The notes: a model not told the origin generated them from the sequence alone. DNA of 64,000 nt from an uncultured Ectothiorhodospiraceae bacterium (GCA_964439835.1 CAYTPQ010000001.1:84120-148119), one strand, 5' to 3'; counted from the stretch's first letter, positions 17,327 through 57,533 are shown. Translations and numbers: made by a program.

Positions 17327-18067
17327 ATGTGTCAGCAACCTGCCAGGGCCCTCGCGATGGCCGCCGTGCTCGCGACCGGTCTGGGCGGGGCACCCGGCCC
17401 CGTGCCGGCCCAAGAGTCACTCTCGTCGGACCCCCACTACACACCGGCCGGCTTCTTTGACGTCCACGTCTGCAACTGGCCGGACCGCCCGCTCTTCTTC
17501 CTGGTGCTGTTCTCGACCGAGCGCTTCGCGGAGGTCAACGGCGTCGAGGTGACCGGGCCCGGGGGCGAGCCGGTCGCACGCCTCGACCCCGCGAAGTTCA
17601 TCCGGCTGGACCGCCCCGGCAAGCCCGAGAAGCGGGTATTCATCCAGCAGGTCGAGGTCCCCGCCGGCGCGGCCAACGGCTGGTACAAGGCGCGGGTGCG
17701 CCTGAGCGACGGCCAGGAGGTCCTCGGCCGCGACTACGTGGTGATCACGGCCCTGCCCCGGGCCGGCGGGTTGGCCCCGGCGCGGGACGCGACCGTCGGC
17801 CTGCCCGCCGTCTTCACCTGGGCGCCGGTGGCGGGTGCCGCCCGCTATCAGGTCTACCTCCGCGACCTGTGGCAGCCGGGCGATAATCCCGTCCACCAGT
17901 CGAAGCTCCTGACTGACACCCGCTACGAGGTCCCGGCGGAGGTGCTGAAGCCCGGCGGCCACTACTCCTGGAAGGTCCACGCCCGGGACGTGGACGAGCA
18001 CATCCTGCTGGGGGACTACAACCACGGCTCCCAGAGCGAGTGGACGCCCTTCGAAGTCGCGGAGTAG
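17327..18067 (+). CDS. Secreted hypothetical protein.
   Basis: ATG at 17327 behind an AGGAG RBS. Signal peptide MCQQPARALAMAAVLATGLGGAPGPVPAQE. No domain recognised by eye. Confidence 0.5.
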   Translation: MCQQPARALAMAAVLATGLGGAPGPVPAQESLSSDPHYTPAGFFDVHVCNWPDRPLFFLVLFSTERFAEVNGVEVTGPGGEPVARLDPAKFIRLDRPGKPEKRVFIQQVEVPAGAANGWYKARVRLSDGQEVLGRDYVVITALPRAGGLAPARDATVGLPAVFTWAPVAGAARYQVYLRDLWQPGDNPVHQSKLLTDTRYEVPAEVLKPGGHYSWKVHARDVDEHILLGDYNHGSQSEWTPFEVAE

Positions 18068-18078
18068 CGGGAAAGGCA

Positions 18079-18226
18079 TCGACCACAAAGTACACGAAGG
18101 ACACGAATGGGATGGAGAACGCAATTTGCACGAGGGCGATCGGATGAGTCTGCGAACCCCTGGCTCGCCCTGGTTAGTTCCGTCTATCAAGTCCTTCGTG
18201 TCCTTTGTGTCCTTCGTGGTGGAAAG
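18079..18226. repeat. Hairpin element A, built from tandem 9-bp units flanked by ACCAC/GTGGT. Family with B (20358-20460) and C (56779-56892).
   Basis: Left arm ACCACAAAGTACACGAAGGACACGAA at 18083-18108. Right arm GTCCTTCGTGTCCTTTGTGTCCTTCGTGGTGG at 18191-18222. These are imperfect inverted repeats with a loop of about 80 nt. The element is AT-richer than its surroundings. Confidence 0.6.
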
Positions 18227-18986
18227 TCCACTCACCGAGTGGCGGCGTACTGGCATCGGGGTCGGCCTGGCCGCTCTGCTCGCGCTGGCGCCACCCCCCG
18301 GTGTGGCGGATACGGCCTCGGGGTCCCTGCCTGCCGCCTGCGCGGTCGACTGCGTGAGCCGCTACGGCGAGGTACTGGGCACGGCGGACCCCGGCGTGCC
18401 CGCCCACTCCAACTGCAGCTCGGCCTGCGTCTCGTTCGAGCCGCACGTGCGGGACGGGCGTTTCCTCGGCATGAAGTGGCAGTGTGTCGAGTACGCCCGC
18501 CGCTGGCTCTACACCGCCAAGGGCGCGGTCTTCGGCGACGTCGACGTGGCGGCCGACGTCTGGCGCAGGGTCGACGCCCTGACCCGAGTCGCGGACGGCG
18601 GCCGCATCGCTCTCACCGCTCACCCCAACGGCTCCCCGTCCCCTCCACGGCCCGGCGACCTGCTGGTCTACGGCGACGAGTTCCTCGGCACCGGCCACCT
18701 GGCCGTCGTCCTGCGGGTGGACCCCGCGGCGGGCACCGTGGAGGTCGCGGAGCAGAACTACGACAACCGCCCCTGGCCGGCCGACCACGCCCGTCGGATC
18801 GACCTGGTCGAGCGTGGCGGGAGGTTCTGGCTGCTGGACGCGTACCTGATTGGCTGGAAGCGCGCCGAGGGGTTACCCGAGGTCTCCAGTGACGTCGGAG
18901 CCCCGGGGGATCCCACCCCGTACCGTGATCCGGCGGCTGGGGTACAGGTCATCGGTCCCCCTGGGTCCCGGCTTACGCCGGAATGA
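18214..18986 (+). CDS. Secreted CHAP-domain (cysteine/histidine-dependent amidohydrolase/peptidase) protein.
   Basis: GTG start inside the right arm of hairpin A. Signal peptide RRTGIGVGLAALLALA. CHAP catalytic Cys context QCVEYARRW and His context GHLAVVLRVD. Confidence 0.7.
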
Positions 18987-19104
18987 CAGCCCGCGCGTGT
19001 GCCGCGAGTCGGCGTCGCTCGCGGGCGGCACGCACGACCTCTGTATGGACAGCGGGCGTGACCCGTGGTGGAGTCTCGACCATCCGCCTTCCGGGAGGTC
19101 CATC

Positions 19105-20172
19105 ATGCTGAGCGAGGCCAGGGGGAAGTTGAACCGTCTGCGGGCCCGCTGCGCGCCCTTCACCCTGCTCAGTGGGCCGCGCGCGGCCGAGGCCATCGAG
19201 TCCCTGGCCGTGTTCGAGCTCCGCCCCGGCGAGTCGGTCACCGTGCGGCCGGGGACGCGCACGGACTACCTGTACGTGGTGGAAGGGGAGGTCGAGGTCA
19301 CCCCACCGGGTGGCCCGTCTACCCGGTACGTGCCGAGCGACACGGACGTGCGGCCGATCGAGCTCGAGGCGGGAGGCCCGCCGCTGACCATCTCGTCCGA
19401 AGGGTCCGGCCTGCTGGCGCGGGCCGACGGCGACACCCTCGACTACCTGCTCAGCTGGGAGACCCTGGGCACGGGCCTTGGCATCGAGAGCGAGGCCCTG
19501 CAGGCGCGCCTCGCCGCCGTCCGACGCTCGCTTGCCTTCCGGCGCATGCCCCTGGAGTGCGTCGAGGAGGCCTTCCGGCGCATGCGCCAGGTGCAGGTCC
19601 GCGCCGGCGAAGAGGTGGTGCGGCTCGGCGAGCCGGGAGACGCCTTCTACATCATCGAGTCGGGCCGGGCCGAGGTCTGGCGGCCGGGTCTTTACGACGA
19701 GGTGCCCCACAAGGTCGACGAGATGGGCCCGGGCGAGGCCTTCGGGGAGGAAGCGCTGCTCACAGGCGATGTACGCGGGGCGACCGTCCGCATGATCGAG
19801 GACGGTACCCTCCTGGTCATGGACAAGGCCGACTTCGAGGCCCTGATCGGCGCGCCGATGGTCGAGCACGTGGAGGCGAACATCGCCCAGGCCTGCCTCG
19901 ACTCCGGGTACATCCCGCTCGACGTCCGCTACGGCGAGGAGTTCGAGGAGGGCCACATACCCGGCGCGTTCATCATCCCGCTGCCCGAGCTGCGTCACCG
20001 CTTTCACGAGCTCGACCCGGCCGCCCGCTATCTGGTGTACTGCCGCAGCGGACGCCGCAGCGCGGTGGCCGCCCTGCTCATGAAGCAGCGAGGGCTGCAC
20101 GCCGTGAGTCTGCGCGAGGGCATCCGCGGCTGGCCCTTCGCCACGGAGGTCTCGACTGTAATCGAGCTGTAA
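19105..20172 (+). CDS. Protein with two cNMP-binding-like domains and a C-terminal rhodanese (sulfurtransferase) domain.
   Basis: ATG at 19105 behind a GGGAGG RBS. The first cNMP-like domain is degenerate. The second is clear (GEPGDAFYIIESGRAEV, GPGEAFGEEALL). The rhodanese domain has an active-site Cys (YLVYCRSGRRS). Confidence 0.8.
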   Translation: MLSEARGKLNRLRARCAPFTLLSGPRAAEAIESLAVFELRPGESVTVRPGTRTDYLYVVEGEVEVTPPGGPSTRYVPSDTDVRPIELEAGGPPLTISSEGSGLLARADGDTLDYLLSWETLGTGLGIESEALQARLAAVRRSLAFRRMPLECVEEAFRRMRQVQVRAGEEVVRLGEPGDAFYIIESGRAEVWRPGLYDEVPHKVDEMGPGEAFGEEALLTGDVRGATVRMIEDGTLLVMDKADFEALIGAPMVEHVEANIAQACLDSGYIPLDVRYGEEFEEGHIPGAFIIPLPELRHRFHELDPAARYLVYCRSGRRSAVAALLMKQRGLHAVSLREGIRGWPFATEVSTVIEL

Positions 20173-20357
20173 CAATGCCCTGCTGTACTGCGCGGCTGGC
20201 GGCACGCGCTGGCGCACCGCCCGAGCTCCTCGAGCCGGTCCTCGCGCGCTGCCCCATGCGGACGCTGGCCCCCGGCGAGACCCTGCTCTCGCCCGCTGAG
20301 CCGAACCACCACCTCTACCGGCTGCCGGACGGGCGGCCGACTGACGCGCAGCAAGCG

Positions 20358-20460
20358 AAGGAACCACAGAGAGCACAGAGAGCACAGAGAGCACAGAGTA
20401 CACAGAGTTATCGGAGCTTCTGCTCTGTGCACTCTGTGGGCTCTGTGGTTCATAAACCAC
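20358..20460. repeat. Hairpin element B, built from tandem 9-bp units (AGAGAGCAC x3-4); same family as A and C.
   Basis: Left arm ACCACAGAGAGCACAGAGAGCACAGAGAGCACAGAGTACACAGAG at 20363-20407. A 15-nt loop. Right arm CTCTGTGCACTCTGTGGGCTCTGTGGTT at 20423-20450. The element lies immediately upstream of crp. Confidence 0.6.
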
Positions 20461-20481
20461 TCCTGACACCGAGAGGCGCAG

Positions 20482-21123
20482 ATGCTCGATAGGATCCCGC
20501 TCTTCGCGGCGCTGACGCCCGAGGCCGTCGCCACGCTCGAACAGCACTCGGCGGTGCGCAGCTTCCGCAAGAACACCGTGGTCATCCAGAAGGGCGACGA
20601 GAGCTCGACCCTGTACGCGGTGGTCGAGGGGCGGCTGAAGGTCTCGATCGCGGACAACGAGGGCAAAGAGGTCATCCTGAACACCCTCGGCCCGGGCGAC
20701 CACTTCGGCGAGCTGGCGATCCTGGGGGAGGGCCCGCGCACCGCGACGGTGATCACGCTGGAGGACTCGCGGCTCCTCACCATGTCGCGCTCGGCCTTCC
20801 TCGACTGCCTCGGCAAGCACCCCGACATCGCGCTGGCGCTGATCCGCCACCTGGCCGACCGGGTGGCCCAGCTGACCGAGCAGGTGGCGAGCCTGGCCCT
20901 GCGCGACGTCTACAGCCGGGTGCGCGAGACGCTGACGGCGAACGCGGTGGAGGCGGACGGCAAGCTGGTGACCGGCCGCTTCACCCAGAGTGAGATCGCG
21001 CAGATGGTCGGCTCCAGCCGCGAGATGGTCAGCCGGATCTTCAAGGAGCTGCGCGAGGGCGGCTACATCAGCCTGGACGACAAGCGGGTCACGATCCTGA
21101 AGAAGCTGCCGACGCGCTGGTAG
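20482..21123 (+). CDS. Crp/Fnr-family transcriptional regulator (cNMP-binding domain plus C-terminal HTH).
   Basis: 213 aa. cNMP domain motifs GPGDHFGELAIL and RTATVITL. C-terminal HTH SEIAQMVGSSREMVSRIFKELRE. Confidence 0.85.
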   Translation: MLDRIPLFAALTPEAVATLEQHSAVRSFRKNTVVIQKGDESSTLYAVVEGRLKVSIADNEGKEVILNTLGPGDHFGELAILGEGPRTATVITLEDSRLLTMSRSAFLDCLGKHPDIALALIRHLADRVAQLTEQVASLALRDVYSRVRETLTANAVEADGKLVTGRFTQSEIAQMVGSSREMVSRIFKELREGGYISLDDKRVTILKKLPTRW

Positions 21124-25403: not shown

Positions 25404-27239
25404 GTGAAGACCGAGACCCTCCAGCATTCCCCGATCCAGCGTTACCTGGACACCCTGCACGCCGAACTGGCGGACCTGCGGGGCGGCGAGGTCGCCAGCT
25501 ACATCCCGGAACTCTCCCACGCCGACCCCGAGTGGTTCGGCATCGCGCTGGTGACCGTCGACGGCCACGTCTACCAGTCCGGGCAGAGCCGCCAGCCCTT
25601 CACCGTACAGTCGATCTCCAAGGCCCTGGTCTACGGCCTGGCGCTGGACGACCACGGGGTCGACCCGGTACTGGCCAAGGTGTGGGTGGAGCCCTCGGGC
25701 GAGGCCTTCAATTCGATCAGCCTGGAGCCCGGTACCGGCCGGCCCCGCAACCCGATGATCAACGCCGGCGCCATCGCCACTGCCGGGCTGATCAAGCGCG
25801 AGGAGAGCCTCGGGCCGATGCAGCGCATCCTCGCGGCCTTCGCCCGCTATACCGGGCACCCTGCCGAGGTCGACGAGAAGGTCTACTTGTCGGAGAAGGA
25901 GACGGGGCACCGCAACCGCGCCATCGCCCACCTCCTGCTCGGCCACGGGATCCTGGACCGGGAGCCCGAGGAGGTGCTCGACATCTACTTCCAGCAGTGC
26001 TCGATCCTGGTCACCGCTCGCGACCTGGCGCTGATGGGCGCCTGCCTCGCCAACAGCGGCGTCAACCCCATCACCGGCGTCCAGGCCCTGAAGAGCGAGC
26101 ACGTGGAGAAGGTCCTGAGCGTCATGACCTCCTGCGGCATGTACGACTACTCGGGCGCCTGGATCTACGACGTCGGCATGCCCGCGAAGAGCGGCGTCGG
26201 CGGCGGGATCCTGGCCGTGCTGCCGGGGCAGTTCGGGCTCGGCGTGTTCTCGCCGCCGCTGGATGCCAAGGGCAACAGCGTGCGCGGCATCGAGGCGTGC
26301 AAGCGGATCTCCCGGGACTTCAAGCTGCACGTCTTCAACGTCGCCCACTCCACCTCGAACACCGCCATCCGCGTGCGCTACGACGCCACCACGGTGCGCT
26401 CGCGGCGGGTGCGCCCGGCCGACGAAGTCGCGGCGCTCAACGAGCACGGCAACCGGATCCAGGTCTATGAGCTGCAGGGCGAGCTGCGCTTCGGCGCCGC
26501 CGAGTCGATCGTCCAGCAGATCCTGGAGGGCGCGGAGAGCCTCGACTACCTGGTGGTCGACCTGAAGCGCGTGTTCGAGCTCGACCACGCGACGCGGGAG
26601 ATCTTCGCCCGGCTGGCCGACGCGATGGAGGCCGCCGGCAAATCGGTGCTGTTCGCCCACACCCGCGAGCACTACCGGTTCCGCCGGCACCTGCTGCGGC
26701 ACTTCCCCGACGCCGAGATGGGCCCCCTCCTGGCGCACGACGACGTGGATCACGCACTCGAGTGGTGCGAGGAGCACCTCCTGCGCGACAAGCTGGGGCA
26801 TGCCCCGGGCGCGGCACAGGTCGGCGGGTGCGCCGACCAGTTCCTCTGCCGGGGCATGACGGCGACCGAGATCGGGTCGCTCCAGAGCAAGGCCCGCCAG
26901 GTCCGCTTTGCCAAGGGCGAGTCCGTGTTCCGCGCCGGCGACGCGGCGGACTCCTTCTTCTTCATCCTGAGCGGGGAGGTGGAGGTGTACGTCGCCACGG
27001 ACTCCCGGCGCGAGGTCCGCCTGGCCACGCTGGGCGCCGGCAACGCCTTCGGCGAGCTGTCGATGCTGGATCAGCGCCGGCGCACCGCCGACGTGCGCGC
27101 CGTGGTGGACACCGAGTGCCTGGAGGTCCACTTCGACGTCCTGGACGAGGCCGTGAAAACGCGCCTCCTGCTGAACCTGGCCGCCCAGCTCGCCCAGCGG
27201 CTCAGCCGCGACGCCAAGGAGATCCGGCAGCTCGGCTAA
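25404..27239 (+). CDS. glsA: Glutaminase (GlsA-type serine-dependent beta-lactamase fold) fused to STAS and cNMP-binding domains.
   Basis: Glutaminase motifs QSISK and NPMINAGAI. A middle STAS-like segment (LDYLVVDLKRVFELDHA). C-terminal CAP-type cNMP domain (FILSGEVEVYV, GAGNAFGELSML, RTADVRA). Confidence 0.85.
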   Translation: MKTETLQHSPIQRYLDTLHAELADLRGGEVASYIPELSHADPEWFGIALVTVDGHVYQSGQSRQPFTVQSISKALVYGLALDDHGVDPVLAKVWVEPSGEAFNSISLEPGTGRPRNPMINAGAIATAGLIKREESLGPMQRILAAFARYTGHPAEVDEKVYLSEKETGHRNRAIAHLLLGHGILDREPEEVLDIYFQQCSILVTARDLALMGACLANSGVNPITGVQALKSEHVEKVLSVMTSCGMYDYSGAWIYDVGMPAKSGVGGGILAVLPGQFGLGVFSPPLDAKGNSVRGIEACKRISRDFKLHVFNVAHSTSNTAIRVRYDATTVRSRRVRPADEVAALNEHGNRIQVYELQGELRFGAAESIVQQILEGAESLDYLVVDLKRVFELDHATREIFARLADAMEAAGKSVLFAHTREHYRFRRHLLRHFPDAEMGPLLAHDDVDHALEWCEEHLLRDKLGHAPGAAQVGGCADQFLCRGMTATEIGSLQSKARQVRFAKGESVFRAGDAADSFFFILSGEVEVYVATDSRREVRLATLGAGNAFGELSMLDQRRRTADVRAVVDTECLEVHFDVLDEAVKTRLLLNLAAQLAQRLSRDAKEIRQLG

Positions 27240-27249
27240 ACGCCCCCGA

Positions 27250-27370
27250 ACATGGTGTGCGGCGGAAGCCGCACCTACGGGTCTGCTGTAGGGCCGCCGC
27301 AGGGCCGGCTTTAGCCGGCCATTCCTCCGTAGGCCCGGCCACCCCGTGCGGCTGAAGCCGCACCTACGGG
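27250..27370. repeat. REP/BIME-like palindromic elements between convergent genes.
   Basis: Two copies of GTGCGGC(N4)GCCGCACCTACGGG (27255-27281, 27345-27369) flank GGCCGGCTTTAGCCGGCC (27307-27324). The same two motifs recur at 43534-43558 and 43584-43601. Confidence 0.5.
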
Positions 27371-31800: not shown

Positions 31801-32109
31801 GGTGATCGATGGTGTCTGACCCTATTGATCGTGGCCCGGGGCGAGGCGCGGTTTCAACCGGCGGGGGGATCATGCCGCGGCCTCGCCAAGGGTCAGATTG
31901 ACTGATATCTCATCCCACGGGACCAGCACCTGGCCCCGCTCGTTCCTCGCCACCAGGTCATGGGCCATCAGGCGATGGACGTCCCGGTAGACGTTGCTGG
32001 GGAAAAGGGGTCGAACTGGATTTCTAGTGTTGCGCTGCCCCCAGGTTCCTGTCTTGGGGGCAAGAAAGTCAGTTCGACCCCTTTTTCCTTCCGCCGCCTT
32101 GACGCCTCG

Positions 32110-43510: not shown

Positions 43511-43658
43511 CCGGCTACGCTGGCCGTCGCGCCGTGTGCGGCTGAAGGCGCACCTTCGTAATCCGATAGCACCGGCTTGTGGGGCCGGATTCAGCCGGCC
43601 ATGGGTCCGCTGCACGTGTCAGGCGGGCGGAAGCCGGCCCTACCACGGCCCCCCCCCA

Positions 43659-49800: not shown

Positions 49801-50708
49801 TCTACGTGGCCAACGACGGCATGGCCAACCACCTGTGGATGAACCAGAAGGACGGCACCTTCGTCAACGACGCGCTCCTCGCGGGCGCGGCCGTCAACCG
49901 GGAAGGCATGGCCGAGGCCAGCATGGGCGTCGACGCCGGCGACGTGGACGGCGACGGCGACGAGGACCTGTTCATGACCCACCTGGCGGGGGAGACCAAC
50001 ACCCTCTACCTGAACAACGGCGAGGGCTGGTTCGAGGACCGCTCGGTGCAGAGCGGCCTGGCGGGGCCGAGCAAGGCCTACACCTCGTTCGGAACGGCCT
50101 TCTTCGACTACGACAACGACGGCGACCTGGATCTGTTCGTCGCCAGCGGGGCGGTCAACATCATCCAGACCCAGGCCGAGGCCGGCGACCCCTACCCCCT
50201 GCGTCAGCCGAAGCAGCTGTACGAGAACGAGGGCGAGGGGCGCTTCCGGGACGTCTCCGCCGAGGCCGGCGCCGCCCTGCAGGTACCCGAGGTGAGCCGG
50301 GGGGTGGCCTTCGGCGACCTGGACAACGACGGCGACACCGACCTGGTGGTGGCCAACAACAACGGGCCGGTACGCCTGCTGGAGAACCGGCTCGGCACCC
50401 GGAACCACTGGCTCGGCCTGCGGCTCATCGGCCGCGAGGGCCGCGACGCCGTCGGCGCCCGGGTCGCTGTCGAGCGTGCGGGCCAACCGACCCTCTGGCG
50501 CCGCGTCCGCGCCGACGGCAGCTACGCCGCCGCCAACGACCCGCGCGTGCTGGTGGGCCTGGGCCAGGGGGGCGAGGTCGGGCAGGTCCGGGTCCACTGG
50601 CCGGACGGCACGGTCGAGTCATTCGCGGGTCTGCTCGCCGACCGCTACCACACGGTCAGGCAAGGGTCCGGGCGCCCAGCGGAGCAGGAACAACCGCAGA
50701 GACACTGA
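46812..50708 (+). CDS. CRTAC1-like protein with two tandem FG-GAP/VCBS beta-propeller plus ASPIC/UnbV modules.
   Basis: 1298 aa. Repeated FxDVTxEAG...GMGVAxGDYDGDG.DLFV and LYRNxGDGTF motifs. Two UnbV/ASPIC-like blocks: RVELTAGGVTQYRQV...VTWPDGS and RVAVERAGQPTLWRRV...VHWPDGT. Confidence 0.8.
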   Translation: MDAKPMNESDVPASPRPHRGEAVIGRAFRWSLAIFAAAGVVVAAGVYLARRAPPPPPSVEQAPVAAPREAAAPVREPPALPFTDVTREAGIDFRHVSGARGERLLPETMGSGAAFFDYDGDGDPDLLLVNSDDWPVEAAASPAGDATGGPDLAGTPQRLGNSAEGDVAAGTPGTAADRPAPGPTGVSQGPVSPGAVGGNARHPTLALYRNDTVTGDKGAPAVSFTDVTREAGLAVSLYGMGVATGDYDGDGHVDVFVTAVGPNRLFRNQGDGTFREVTEQAGVTGAADAWSTGAAFFDYDGDGDLDLFVGNYVRWSREIDLQVDFRLTGIGRAYGPPSAFEGAHPYLYRNEGNGTFTDVSAAAGVQVANPATGRPMAKALGVAPVDLDGDGRMDLLVANDTVQNFLLRNRGDGTFEEIGTAAGVAFDRDGAATGAMGIDTARYRNDEALAVAIGNFANEMTSFYVTQGVPDLLADEAIQAGIGPASRQALTFGLFFFDADLDGQIDLLQANGHLEAEINQVQPSQHYAQPAQLFWNCGPDCPAAYVPVPAQQIGDLARPMVGRGATYADVDGDGDLDVLLTENGGLPRLLRNDQALGHHWLRVRLVGRAPNPDAIGARVELTAGGVTQYRQVVPARSYLSQVELPVTFGLGQSAAVERLRVTWPDGSAEDVPVEGMDRLVTVRQTGAGPAATALPTGSAPATPTGGNPPTALAAEAPPAAGSVATPGPPAAAPAATPPPTAEGGGFVEIAEASGLDFVQFNGMSGEWYLVENLGGGVALLDYDGDGDLDVFLVQGEMLGPKPPSAALFPPPPGKPPGARLYRNDLTVAPDGTRSLRFTDVTEQSGIRDTGYGMGVAAADYDNDGDVDLYLANLGPNQLWRNNGDGTFTNVTQPAGVGEPRLSVSAAFLDYDRDGRLDLFVGNYVDFSPDNNRPCYAPWSARDYCSPKVYRALPDTLYRNRGDGTFEDVSVKTRVAQEAGTALGVVAADFNGDGWADVYVANDGMANHLWMNQKDGTFVNDALLAGAAVNREGMAEASMGVDAGDVDGDGDEDLFMTHLAGETNTLYLNNGEGWFEDRSVQSGLAGPSKAYTSFGTAFFDYDNDGDLDLFVASGAVNIIQTQAEAGDPYPLRQPKQLYENEGEGRFRDVSAEAGAALQVPEVSRGVAFGDLDNDGDTDLVVANNNGPVRLLENRLGTRNHWLGLRLIGREGRDAVGARVAVERAGQPTLWRRVRADGSYAAANDPRVLVGLGQGGEVGQVRVHWPDGTVESFAGLLADRYHTVRQGSGRPAEQEQPQRH

Positions 50709-50716
50709 GGCGCAGA

Positions 50717-52444
50717 GTGATTAACGACCATTCAACCACCTCGGCGCCTCTGCGCCTCTGCGGTAATTCCCGACCGACGCGCGGCCATCGGCTGATTGCG
50801 GCGCTCTTGGTGCTCGCGGCCCTCGCCGCGGGCGCCGCCGAGGACCCGCTGAGGGTGCCGTCGGTGTGGCGAGGGGTCGCGCTGCAGGCGATCCCCGACC
50901 CCGACCTCTCCCAGGCGGAGCCGGCCGTGCAGCAAACCCTGCGGGAGGCGCGGGAGAACCTGGTGAAGAGCTTGCAGGCACCGGACATCACCGCCGGCCA
51001 GCTGGCCGACGCCTTCGGCGCCACCTGCGGCTTCTACCTGGTCTACCGGCTGTGGGAGCCCGCCGGGCCCTGCTACGCCAACGCCGAGGCGCTCGCCCCC
51101 GGCGACTACCGCTGGCCCTACTACCTGGGGTACCGGCACGAGCAGGACGGCCACCCCGAGCAGGCCGCGGCAGCCTTCGAGCGGAGCCTGGCCCTGCGCC
51201 CGGACTACGCCCCCGCGCGCGTGCGACTCGCCCGCGCCTACCTGGAGCTGGGCCGCGCCGGCGAGGCCGAGCCCATGCTGCAAGACGCACTCGGCGACCC
51301 CGGACTGCGGGGGCCCGCCCGCTTCGCCCTCGGGCGCGCGGCCCTGGCCCGCAACGACCACGCGGCGGCGGCCCGCGAGCTGGAGGCGGTCCTGACCGAG
51401 CAGCCTGAGGCCTCGCGGGTCCGCTACCCGCTCGCCATGGCCTACCGCGGCCTCGGCCGGGTCGAGGATGCCCGGGCCCAGCTCGCCCAGCGCGGGGAGG
51501 GCGAGCCCCGCTTCGTCGACCCGCTGCTCGACGAGCTCCAGGGGCTCCTCACCGGAACGCGCACGCTCTTCTACCGGGGCATCGAAGCGGTCCGCAACGG
51601 CCACTTCGACGCGGCGGTGGCCGCCTTCGCCGAGGGGCTCGGCCGCGAGCCGGGCAACGTCAACGCCCGGGTGACGCTGGCGCGGGCGCGCTACCTGACG
51701 GGCGACCGGGACCGCGCTCGGCGCGAGCTGGACGAGGCGCTGGCGCGCCAGCCGGACCACGACCTCGGGCTGTTTCTGCGCGGCGTGCTGGCCGAAGAGG
51801 ACGGCAACCCAGAGGAGGCCGCGAGGTTCTACGAAAGGGCGCTCGCCGCCGCACCGGAGCACCCGGGGGCCAGCCAGTACCTGGGCAACGCCCGCATGCG
51901 TGCCGGCCGCTACGAGGAGGCCGCCAAACTCTACGCCACCGCCTGGCGCGACGACCTCAAGAACATGACGGCGCGCCTGTACGAAGCCCTCGCCCTGACC
52001 CTGGCGGGCCACGACCGCACCGCCCGCGAGCGGCTCGAGCGCGCCGTCGCCGACGTGCCGGACGACCCGATGCCGCGCCTGGGTCTAGCGCGGCTGCTCG
52101 CGGCGAGCCGCGACGACACCGTCCGCGACGGCGCCCGGGCCCTGCCCCTCGCTCAGGCCCTGTTCGACGGCTTCCCCAGCCTGGAGCACGCCGAGACCCT
52201 GGCCATGGCCCTGGCCGAGGTCGGCCGGCTGGAGGACGCGGCCTCCCTCCAGGAGAATGCAGTCCAGGCGGTGGTGGCCGCCGGCCGCTTCGATGCCCTG
52301 CCGCGGGTCCAGGCGGCCCTTGAGCGCTATCGACAAGGCCAGCCCGCCCGGCAACCCTGGTCCGCCTCCGAGCCGATGCTCTACCCACCGCCCGGCCAGG
52401 CGCGCGGACCGTTCCTGCAGTACCCCACCTTGTCGGCCTACTGA
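50717..52444 (+). CDS. Secreted TPR-repeat protein.
   Basis: GTG start 9 nt after the upstream stop. Hydrophobic signal-like segment LIAALLVLAALAAGAA. Multiple TPR-like helical repeats (AYLELGRAGEAEPMLQDAL...). Confidence 0.7.
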   Translation: MINDHSTTSAPLRLCGNSRPTRGHRLIAALLVLAALAAGAAEDPLRVPSVWRGVALQAIPDPDLSQAEPAVQQTLREARENLVKSLQAPDITAGQLADAFGATCGFYLVYRLWEPAGPCYANAEALAPGDYRWPYYLGYRHEQDGHPEQAAAAFERSLALRPDYAPARVRLARAYLELGRAGEAEPMLQDALGDPGLRGPARFALGRAALARNDHAAAARELEAVLTEQPEASRVRYPLAMAYRGLGRVEDARAQLAQRGEGEPRFVDPLLDELQGLLTGTRTLFYRGIEAVRNGHFDAAVAAFAEGLGREPGNVNARVTLARARYLTGDRDRARRELDEALARQPDHDLGLFLRGVLAEEDGNPEEAARFYERALAAAPEHPGASQYLGNARMRAGRYEEAAKLYATAWRDDLKNMTARLYEALALTLAGHDRTARERLERAVADVPDDPMPRLGLARLLAASRDDTVRDGARALPLAQALFDGFPSLEHAETLAMALAEVGRLEDAASLQENAVQAVVAAGRFDALPRVQAALERYRQGQPARQPWSASEPMLYPPPGQARGPFLQYPTLSAY

Positions 52445-56048: not shown

Positions 56049-56357
56049 CTACTTCTTCTCGGAGGAAGACGAAGCCGCAGGCGCTACGACCACCGGCGCC
56101 GCATAGTACGGGTAGCCGCCCCAGCCGTAGCCCGGATAACCGCCCCAGCCGTAGCCCGGATAGCCGCCCCAGCCGTAGCCGGGGTACCCACCCCAGCCGT
56201 ATGGGTAACCATAGCCGCCATAGTACGGGTAGCCGCCGTACCAGGGGCCACCGCCCCACCAGGGGCCACCGCCCCAGAAGGCACTCGCCGAAGTCGCCGC
56301 CAGCCCGGTGGCTCCCACCACCAGCGCCGCCGCCAGCACACGAGACATCTTGGTCAT
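56049..56357 (-). CDS. Small secreted Gly/Tyr/Trp-rich repeat protein, sulfur-globule-protein (Sgp)-like.
   Basis: RBS GGAGAG. Signal peptide MTKMSRVLAAALVVGATGLAATSASA. The mature part is almost entirely GGYPGYGWGGYP repeats, ending in a Ser/Lys tail. Followed by a strong terminator. Confidence 0.55.
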   Translation of the reverse strand: MTKMSRVLAAALVVGATGLAATSASAFWGGGPWWGGGPWYGGYPYYGGYGYPYGWGGYPGYGWGGYPGYGWGGYPGYGWGGYPYYAAPVVVAPAASSSSEKK

Positions 56358-56504
56358 GACTGTTCTCTCCTCAAGCACGTGATGAACAAGACTCCTGAAA
56401 TACCAGGTCAGCCCCTTGGTGCCACTGCAAACCTATTATATTCAGAGTCCTGAGGAGGGAAATGATCCACATCAACGGCCACCAAGAAGTTGACGTGGAT
56501 CAAT

Positions 56505-56738
56505 TTACAACCCGACCAACTCGGCGTGCACACCCGCCGAGCGCACCTGGGCCAGGATGGTCTGGCTCGAGACCCGGTCGGGGTTGTACTCGACGACCAT
56601 CAGGTGCGGGCGTTCGTCGTGCGAAACGGCGGCCACCACCCCGTCCAGCGCCCGCAGGCCGTCACCGATCCGTTCCCGAGTGGCGTGGTCCACCGTCTCG
56701 TCGATATGAACCGTCACGTCAACCAGCTTGATGTCCAT
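56505..56738 (-). CDS. Small hypothetical cytoplasmic protein.
   Basis: 77 aa. No signal peptide, no Cys motifs, no recognised family. Confidence 0.35.
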   Translation of the reverse strand: MDIKLVDVTVHIDETVDHATRERIGDGLRALDGVVAAVSHDERPHLMVVEYNPDRVSSQTILAQVRSAGVHAELVGL

Positions 56739-56778: not shown

Positions 56779-56892
56779 TGACCACGAAGGACACCAAGAA
56801 CACAAAGGGAAAGGATTTGAACGCTAAGACGGTCCCCACGGCGACCCCGTTAATCCAATTGTCCTTCGTGTCCTTCGTGTTCTTGGTGGTTA
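56779..56892. repeat. Hairpin element C, built from tandem 9-bp units; same family as A and B.
   Basis: Left arm ACCACGAAGGACACCAAGAACACAAAGG at 56781-56808. Right arm GTCCTTCGTGTCCTTCGTGTTCTTGGTGGT at 56861-56890. It lies just downstream of the V-ATPase subunit D gene. Confidence 0.6.
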
Positions 56893-56900
56893 ACTCGCAT

Positions 56901-57533
56901 TCAGGCCTGCGCGCGCTGGGCTTCCTGCTCGCGCAGGACCTTGATCTGGAAGAGCGTGTTGCGCTCCTCTTCCTCCAGGGTCGAGACGATGAAGGCGATG
57001 GTGTTGCGGTAGCGCGGGATGACGTTGTACTTGAGCGCGTTCACCCGCTTCTGAGTCTTGCGCTGCTCCTCCAGCAGGCGCCAGAGGGCGGTCTCCGCCT
57101 CGCCCAGCCGGGCCAGCAGCACGGCCATCTCGGCGAAGCGGGCGCGGGTCTCGTCGAGGGTGGCGTCGGTGCCGAGCACCGCCACCGGCTGCAGCGGCAG
57201 GCGCTCGGCGGTGACCGCCGGGTACTGCACGCCCAGGTGGCTGCGCGGCAGGATGTGGACGTCGATCCCGAGCGGCAGGCCGAGTGCGACCTGGCCAAGC
57301 TTCTGCTTGCCCATGCGCATGTGCGTCACGCTGAGCCAGCGGTAGGCCTCGCGCACGGACTGCCGGGTCTGTTTGCGCAGGCTGCGGTAGTGGCCGAGCC
57401 GCTCGTAGACGAGCCGCGTCAGCAGGTCTTTCTTGCGCTCGAGCAGGGTGTGGCCCTGCTCGAGGAAGGCGACCTGCCGCTTCAGGCGCAGCAGGTTGCT
57501 CTTGGTCGGGGGGACTTTGAGTCGCTGTTCCAC
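56901..57533 (-). CDS. atpD: V/A-type ATPase subunit D.
   Basis: 210 aa. N-terminal KVPPTKSNLLRLKRQVAFLEQGHTLLERKKDLL matches V-type subunit D. Confidence 0.85.
   Translation of the reverse strand: MEQRLKVPPTKSNLLRLKRQVAFLEQGHTLLERKKDLLTRLVYERLGHYRSLRKQTRQSVREAYRWLSVTHMRMGKQKLGQVALGLPLGIDVHILPRSHLGVQYPAVTAERLPLQPVAVLGTDATLDETRARFAEMAVLLARLGEAETALWRLLEEQRKTQKRVNALKYNVIPRYRNTIAFIVSTLEEEERNTLFQIKVLREQEAQRAQA

Follow-up and report, generated by a model that had tools for sequence, protein, structure and literature searches.

A widespread intergenic hairpin repeat with arms of short tandem units in an uncultured Ectothiorhodospiraceae bacterium and other prokaryotes

Hairpins with tandem-unit arms in the window

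What are the hairpins of comparatively low GC content that lie between genes in this 64,000 nt stretch of an uncultured Ectothiorhodospiraceae genome (henceforth the window), and how do such sequences spread? An earlier note, made from the sequence alone, had described three of them as a novel family built from tandem 9 bp units, and suggested that they could be protein-binding arrays, small RNA genes or non-autonomous mobile elements. The sequence at all three sites agrees with the architecture proposed there, ACCAC-(9-mer)n-loop-(9-mer')n-GTGGT, and a fourth copy composed of 8 nt units, absent from that note, lies at 50687-50770. The features of the four copies, none of which is assigned to a strand, are as follows.

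Copy 1, 18079-18226: ACCAC at 18082-18086; left arm 18082-18107 (ACCAC AAAGTACAC GAAGGACAC GAA); loop 18108-18190 (83 nt); right arm 18191-18220 (GTCCTTCGT GTCCTTTGT GTCCTTCGT GGT), with the end GTGGT.
Copy 2, 20358-20460: ACCAC at 20363-20367; left arm 20362-20407 (AACCAC, three copies of AGAGAGCAC, AGAGTACAC, AGAG); loop 20408-20422 (about 14 nt); right arm 20423-20449 (CTCTGTG CACTCTGTG GGCTCTGTG GT).
Copy 3, 56779-56892: ACCAC at 56781-56785; left arm 56781-56803 (ACCAC GAAGGACAC CAAGAACAC); loop 56804-56860 (57 nt); right arm 56861-56890.
Copy 4, 50687-50770, of 8 nt units: left arm 50692-50717 (AACCGC AGAGACAC TGAGGCGC AGAG); loop 50718-50739; right arm 50740-50764 (CTCGGCGC CTCTGCGC CTCTGCGGT); outer stem GGAAC/ATTCC.

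Copies 1 to 3 share the plan (A)CCAC-(RRRRRR-CAC)n-loop-(GTG-YYYYYY)n-GTGG(T), in which each 9 nt unit comprises six mostly purine bases followed by CAC, mirrored in the right arm by GTG-pyrimidine units, and the loop varies from 14 to 83 nt; the 8 nt units of copy 4 end in CGC or CAC. The window copies are 84-148 nt long, with inverted arms of 23-31 nt that are 81-90% complementary. These arms are strand-symmetric, as the reverse complement of a purine arm followed by a pyrimidine arm has the same order, and only the loop distinguishes the strands; no homology was detected between the loops of copies 1 and 3.

The window contains eight occurrences of the motif CCAC-N6-CAC-N6-CAC, where shuffled sequence would give 0.15, and six of the eight are the six arms of copies 1 to 3. 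Likewise, GTGTCCTTCGTG is found at up to two mismatches 20 times, against 5.7 expected. Tandem Repeats Finder called a period of 9 in every arm of copies 1 to 3, and the arm pairs rank among the longest in the window identified by an inverted-repeat finder. The long imperfect stems previously described are borne out by folding, with z-scores of -3.7 to -6.2 for copies 1 to 3 on both strands relative to shuffled controls, and of -5.8 and -8.0 for copy 4. The reported drop in GC content is also evident, at approximately 0.55 in the elements against approximately 0.72 in the flanks and the genome. The hairpin repeat with tandem-unit arms is real.

Other small repeats are present in the window. 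Three REP-like palindromes (GTGCGGCTGAAGCCGCAC then CTACG) at 27236-27368 and 43515-43558 are of the GTAG type and unrelated to the 9-mer elements, in keeping with the distinction drawn in the earlier note. A hairpin at 32000-32088, in an intergenic gap, has 26 nt arms (GGGAAAAGGGGTCGAACTGGATTTCT / AGAAAGTCAGTTCGACCCCTTTTTCC) that are 88% complementary, surrounding a 37 nt loop, and is not composed of tandem units.

All four copies lie between co-directional genes. Copy 1 begins 14 nt past the TAG stop codon (18065-18067) of an upstream gene of 348 aa and abuts a CHAP gene, which gene callers start from an ATG at 18144 within the copy 1 loop, such that the right arm is read as SFVSFVSFV, which qualifies the earlier view that all three sites are intergenic. 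The right-arm GTG codons of copy 1 (18107-18221 region) are all in frame with CHAP, and a start at GTG 18216 or 18219, directly before the signal peptide, is more likely than one at ATG 18144. Copy 2 ends 30 nt upstream of the start codon, at 20482, of a crp-family gene. Copy 3 sits in the gap between two minus-strand genes, past the stop of that for V-type ATPase subunit D (56901-57533) and ahead of the start of a gene of 77 aa (56505-56738). Also beside copy 3, at 56049-56378 on the minus strand, is a gene for a small secreted Gly/Tyr/Trp/Pro-rich protein with GWGGYPGY repeats, containing a 24 bp tandem repeat (3.9 copies) and an 18 bp repeat. The stop codon of an FG-GAP/ASPIC gene (50706-50708) lies within the left arm of copy 4, which is followed by a TPR gene; a GTG at 50717, in the same arm, is in frame with the latter and 6 nt past a GAGG, so that translation may run through the loop and right arm and lengthen the TPR protein at its N-terminus.

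The elements themselves encode nothing and lie in 3'-proximal intergenic DNA. None of the four window copies overlaps a consensus for a sigma-70-like promoter or an intrinsic terminator, and a T-rich tail (at least five T in the next 10 nt) follows only 11 of 63 hairpins family-wide (approximately 17%), symmetrically. The window elements are not canonical terminators or promoters.

Distribution across genomes and viral contigs

The search of other genomes that the earlier note had called for found the family to extend well beyond three loosely similar sites. The 19-mer GTCCTTCGTGTCCTTYGTG is present in at least 120 stretches from at least 11 phyla in GTDB, sampled as one genome per species, where by our own arithmetic approximately 9 would be expected by chance in 596 Gb, and a scan of viral contigs with the same sequence found 27 further stretches. 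Most of the matches listed share the hairpin architecture as well as the arm sequence. The host phyla among them include Acidobacteriota, Planctomycetota, Verrucomicrobiota, Chlamydiota, Gemmatimonadota, Chloroflexota, Spirochaetota and Bacteroidota, further hosts being alpha-, beta-, gamma- and delta-proteobacteria, Acidimicrobiia and the archaeon Methanocella. Some pattern matches are ordinary coding or low-complexity sequence, for instance in Streptomyces, Pseudarthrobacter and giant-virus MAGs.

At 57 of the 129 sites among the matches listed, a strong complementary arm is found upstream, across loops of 5-342 nt. Most of these paired sites end in GTGG(T), with flanks that prolong the stem, as in TTGAACCAC...GTGGTTCAA, TTAACCAC...GTGGTTAA and TCACCAC...GTGGTGA. 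In the viral contigs L139, L142, L145/L157 and L148 (GC content 0.64-0.68), full hairpins follow phage structural genes such as the portal gene and are flanked by an A-run and a T-run, as a bidirectional terminator would be, an arrangement that the window copies do not have.

Part of the evidence for sharing between phyla comes from MAGs, in which mis-binning can occur. However, elements are also carried by the complete genome of Methanocella sp. MCL-LM, the isolate Dokdonella fugitiva, Calothrix and Herpetosiphon, as well as by long-read contigs of up to 3.7 Mb, and hence the observed range is not only a binning artefact.

Amongst curated plasmids there was a single match, of 32 nt, on an Anabaena plasmid, and a curated phage collection contained no match to the family. 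Neither the window nor 12 further loci matched any Rfam covariance model at gathering thresholds, and a relaxed E-value applied to 18000-20600 returned only spurious matches to miRNA hairpins. Searching open-access papers for ten arm sequences found only unrelated primers, and searching the literature by concept (foldback, MITE, tandem, heptamer) found only analogues. The novelty claimed for the family is hence plausible, as neither an Rfam entry nor an open-access paper containing these sequences was found, and the repeat is apparently undescribed so far, its mostly uncultured hosts being the reason that it was overlooked.

Sister forms, polarity and the unit of copying

The collected loci contain other 9-mer arm units (CACGGAGGA, CACAGAGGA, CGCAGAGAA, CGCAGATTA, ACAGGATTA and CACGAAGTA), an 8-mer (CACGAAAA), two 10-mers (CACCGATGAA and CGCCGATGAA) and several heptamers, among them TGATAAC, which is a circular permutation of the TAACTGA repeat. 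These sister forms, with unit lengths of 7-10 nt, co-occur and are often nested in each other's loops (L108, L118, L125 and L110). Other phyla also carry the unit types of copy 2 (CACAGAG) and copy 4 (CGCAGAG), as at L041, L094, L119 and L022. In a Pyrinomonadaceae (Acidobacteriota) MAG, TGATAAC heptamers (four copies) form the two arms of a hairpin (L021, 5657-5761).

Of neighbouring arms within 300 nt of one another, 69 pairs are ordered purine then pyrimidine and 6 pyrimidine then purine, implying a fixed polarity of the element in which CCAC and GTGG are outermost. The arms of one element mirror each other's irregularities: a pattern of 8, 9 and 10 nt units, repeated in both arms, is common to MAGs of Gemmatimonadales, Planctomycetota and Gammaproteobacteria (L066, L114, L107, L049, L118 and L125). 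Loops match only within a genome, and between genomes the arms alone are shared. In a Methylovulum MAG, two full-length inverted copies flank one gene and have both the loop and an outer inverted repeat in common. The outermost bases vary (TTGAACCAC, TTAACCAC, TCACCAC, GACCAC, AACAC), whilst the internal units are conserved, which is the reverse of what is usually seen at ends cut by a transposase.

Turnover at the sites of the window copies

Comparison with related assemblies indicates that these loci change quickly. In a strain 99.6% identical to the window (L001), the left arm of copy 2 is one 9 nt unit shorter, a difference that is provisional, coming from a short-read assembly; it is within copy 2 that short-read contigs of this species break. 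In two further relatives, in which Crp is 98% identical (L160 and L161), the position of copy 2 is occupied by no more than a right arm of two CTTCGTG-type units, and the end GTGGTTCAT is common to this arm and to the CTCTGTG-type hairpin of the window. Orthologues of crp at 65% and 80% identity have no element upstream, and in those at 73-75% identity crp directly follows another gene, after a gap of approximately 25-30 nt. The region upstream of crp also differs in gene content. Relatives, whether close or more distant, have a partner-switching module of three genes (for STAS, HATPase_c_2 kinase and a cNMP-binding SpoIIE phosphatase) between a cNMP-rhodanese gene and crp (L160, 1156-3310; L161, 2190-4344), whereas in the window this module is missing from 20173-20343, where apparently only the 3' end of the SpoIIE gene is left.

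Copy 1 is also present in a second assembly (L162), in which CHAP is 85% identical. The element is 95% identical between the two, against 90-96% in its flanks, such that no selective constraint on copy 1 is seen in this comparison, and one arm change is uncompensated. In L161, positions 1-360, aligned to 18065-18290 of the window, reveal an in-frame deletion of 225 nt. With it go the stop codon, the whole of copy 1 and the CHAP signal peptide's N-terminal half, and the upstream 348 aa gene and CHAP become one fused gene. This fusion is the derived state, because standalone CHAP proteins of around 204-238 aa are the rule among homologues. The losses at copies 1 and 2 are imprecise, with neither precise excision nor a precise empty site observed. 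A scan of metagenomes for an empty site of copy 3 gave 0 matches, which is weak evidence as the occupied locus is perhaps itself missing from the collection.

A proposed foldback-type selfish repeat

The explanation that we prefer, with moderate confidence, is that the elements are a non-autonomous selfish repeat of foldback type, the arms of which change length through slippage. In such a repeat, short units (CAC or CGC plus five or six purines) would be arrayed in two inverted arms, with (A)CCAC and GTGG(T) as the outer bounds and a variable loop between them. It may spread as DNA, either through an enzyme supplied in trans or by template switching during replication, in which the growing end of a purine array snaps back; snap-back at the 3' end of the purine array would explain the mirrored irregularities of the arms, the stems that run on into the flanks and the purine-first order. 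Elements would be carried between lineages and copied as a whole within genomes. Slipped-strand mispairing would then alter the length of the arms, imprecise deletion associated with the hairpin would remove elements, and selection would tolerate them mainly just downstream of stop codons. If transcribed, an element could form a stem of 25-40 bp from either strand, which might act as an incidental barrier, processing site or stabiliser.

Of the suggestions made in the earlier note, a small non-autonomous mobile element is the one that best fits the data, given the absence of elements from orthologous sites, the whole copies shared within a genome, the nesting and the breaks in assemblies. No target-site duplication was found at the four window copies or the Methylovulum copies, the flanks often continuing the inverted repeat instead, and no autonomous insertion sequence with matching ends was found in approximately 1.2 Mb of loci, where arm pairs 1.3-4.8 kb apart bracket ordinary genes (encoding a peptidase, a decarboxylase and a phage portal protein). 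Across approximately 150 loci, no recurrent protein family and no linked transposase was detected beside the elements; all-against-all clustering of 933 neighbouring proteins returned generic families only, such as ABC ATPases, histidine kinases and permeases. The lack of target-site duplication, the variable outermost bases and the lack of an autonomous partner or linked enzyme in these loci argue against classical cut-and-paste transposition.

Position relative to genes and alternative explanations

The position of the elements raises a different possibility: that they are RNA-level modules of the 3' intergenic region, in which the purine array acts in the mRNA just past the stop codon. The array could retain ribosomes or load them anew, or serve as the site of an RNA-binding protein, and the hairpin could either conceal it or shield or process the message upstream; we regard this as possible, if on balance rather unlikely. 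A purine array contains only A, C and G, so it is unstructured on its own, and its AAGGA, GGAG or GAGG cores resemble Shine-Dalgarno sequences, as exemplified by the GAGG preceding the in-frame GTG in copy 4.

One line of evidence comes from arrays that have no complementary partner within 600 nt. According to a crude ORF-based gene call, on which all gene-position figures are based, the purine strand of these single arms is the sense strand in 34 cases and the antisense strand in 13 within co-directional gaps (p = 0.003; counted per locus, 26 against 10, p = 0.011), and half of them begin no more than 23 nt past a stop codon. By the same gene call, 31 of the hairpin-containing gaps are co-directional, 12 convergent and 5 divergent, the excess of convergent over divergent contexts also being consistent with an RNA-level role. 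The hairpins lie a median of 33 nt from the upstream stop codon (lower quartile 13) and 58 nt from the next start, with 22 of 31 nearer the stop and 9 nearer the start (p = 0.03); single arms and hairpins alike cluster 10-30 nt past stop codons.

In the phage-like IMG/VR contigs L133, L136 and L151 (JGI sample 3300037461), most of the gene gaps read contain purine-rich arrays on the sense strand, starting approximately 10 nt past the stop codon and preceding the next ribosome-binding site, often with a common AAGAGCNTTTA leader ahead of them. Several unit types occur side by side in these gaps (CACGAAGGA, CACGAAAGG, CACAGATGGA, GGACGAAT and TNATCAG heptamers). Finally, in the comparison with L162, an A-to-G change in the stem of the copy 1 loop preserves pairing only in the sense RNA.

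Set against this, the hairpins show no asymmetry between sense and antisense strands: the difference in folding energy (sense minus antisense, -1.6 kcal/mol, p = 0.19) and the excess of G-U over A-C mismatches (42 against 32, p = 0.30) are both non-significant. Units with no Shine-Dalgarno-like core are common (GAAGTA, GAAAA, CCAAGA, AGATTA and CGATGAA), elements are missing from orthologous sites and quickly replaced, the T-rich tails are infrequent and symmetric, with no terminator consensus at the window copies, and the sense bias itself could reflect selection against C/U-rich, Rho-loading RNA inside operons. The suggestion that the elements are small RNA genes fares poorly on similar grounds, given that they have no promoter or terminator consensus, no conserved loops and no strand asymmetry in folding. 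Some RNA-level effect is nevertheless possible. The sense bias of the single arms and the proximity to stop codons are the main facts that the selfish-repeat explanation does not predict, and they point to constraint or function at the level of the transcript.

An array of binding sites in the DNA, with one site per 9 bp unit forming a symmetric platform for an iteron-like, nucleoid or transposition protein, seems improbable, and is the weakest of the three original suggestions. The regularity of the units, the invariant CAC/GTG core, the identity of the element on both strands and the conservation across taxa of arms rather than loops would all be in keeping with protein binding. However, units are 7, 8, 9 or 10 bp long in the sister forms and irregularly 8-9-10 within single arms, hence there is no helical phasing, which makes a DNA-binding array unlikely. 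The strand symmetry of the sequence also tells against an iteron-like array. Furthermore, the number of units differs between near-identical strains, no replication, partition or transposase gene is linked, and the presence of the same unit in bacteria, an archaeon and viruses would need a common binding protein.

Chance simple-sequence repeats or assembly artefacts of no common origin, as the coding and low-complexity matches mentioned above might suggest, are effectively refuted by the breadth of the distribution, the recurrence of one architecture with the same ends and polarity, the count of motifs in the window, the presence of elements in complete genomes and long-read assemblies, and the inheritance of copy 1 in L162.

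A broader proposal, which we put forward as speculative and unlikely to hold in full, posits one pan-prokaryotic class of intergenic modules with tandem units of 7-10 nt, including the STRR/TAACTGA repeats, that spread with no transposase of their own (through slippage and snap-back, or an enzyme in trans) and act in the mRNA past the stop codon, through ribosome retention or protein binding, with the hairpin as a masked or stabilising form.

Implications

Being shared by many phyla of soil and water bacteria, an archaeon and viral contigs, the elements would count amongst the known small non-coding repeats with the widest distribution. They have practical consequences, in that they break short-read assemblies and mislead gene callers into placing starts within the element. 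They also mark rapid local rearrangement, as seen in the gene fusion by deletion and the replaced region upstream of the crp-family regulator, and they connect a larger class with the still unexplained heptamer arrays of Beggiatoaceae and cyanobacteria. Should the sense bias and stop proximity reflect function, they would represent a new kind of 3' intergenic signal; if not, the elements offer a clean system in which to study how foldback repeats originate and spread with no obvious transposase.

Comparison with known systems

Several classes of sequence can be set aside. Integron attC sites have the form RYYYAAC...GTTRRRY, but the ends in the window read GTGGTTAAC, GTGGTTCAT, GTGGTGGAA and GCGGTAATT, and only occasional copies elsewhere fit GTTRRRY. 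Iterons are direct repeats of 17-22 bp beside a replication initiator or origin, whereas the units here are 8-9 bp, the arms are inverted and the neighbouring genes encode CHAP, Crp, V-ATPase D, FG-GAP and TPR proteins. The GGA sites bound by CsrA are absent from the AGAGAGCAC and CGCAGAG units, and, judged from sequence, Hfq ARN repeats, the DnaA box, Chi, mimicry of the tRNA T-arm and similarity to 16S rRNA do not fit consistently. The triplex-repeat motif of PMC4666352 is a different, G/C-rich motif.

REP and REPIN elements are mobilised by RAYT transposases; no such gene was found beside the present elements in approximately 150 loci. The two groups resemble each other in being short, non-coding, hairpin-forming, high-copy and intergenic with a bias towards the 3' ends of genes, and a REPIN is likewise an inverted doublet with a loop. 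However, REPs are single palindromes of 20-40 bp tagged by GTAG or CGTC (PMC3733652, PMC3116915), whilst the arms described here open with (A)CCAC, are built from tandem units of 8-10 nt in which purines follow a CAC core, have no GTAG or CGTC head and span a far wider taxonomic range. Bacterial MITEs such as Correia, ERIC and Nezha are similar in their small size, terminal inverted repeats, lack of coding capacity, nesting and amplification of whole copies within a genome. The terminal inverted repeats and small non-coding size expected of MITEs are indeed present; the differences are that no target-site duplication or matching autonomous insertion sequence was found, the outermost bases are variable, the arms are composed of tandem sub-repeats and only these arms are shared across genomes.

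The modules of BOX elements are 45-59 nt long. Like the present elements, BOX elements of Streptococcus pneumoniae are modular intergenic repeats that fold and contain varying numbers of internal tandem modules (PMC3184786), but their sequence is unrelated and they are restricted to streptococci. The closest behaviour is that of the heptamer repeats, the cyanobacterial STRR and the TAACTGA type, which also form intergenic, gene-oriented arrays of short units with a patchy cross-phylum range and no known mechanism, and arrays of this heptamer type adjoin CACGAAGGA arrays in L151. TAACTGA repeats, found in Beggiatoaceae, Cyanobacteria and Bacteroidetes, are direct repeats just upstream of start codons (PMC4679880); these are 7 nt units near starts, whereas the present units are 9 nt, mostly in inverted arms and near the upstream stop codon.

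The closest architecture is that of the eukaryotic Foldback (FB) transposons. These have long inverted arms of short tandem repeats around a heterogeneous middle, and their arm length varies in steps of one unit. Galileo-type elements provide the comparison for this architecture (PMC3573991). The likeness, in inverted tandem-repeat arms and a variable middle, is an analogy only, as the Foldback and Galileo elements are eukaryotic and on the scale of kilobases, some copies have a transposase and nothing points to common descent. Amongst bacterial classes, REP/REPIN elements and MITEs come nearest; of their defining features, the GTAG or CGTC head and the target-site duplication are lacking here, and no autonomous partner came to light in the loci covered. 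The elements are an unusually widespread variant of the small palindromic and foldback repeats.
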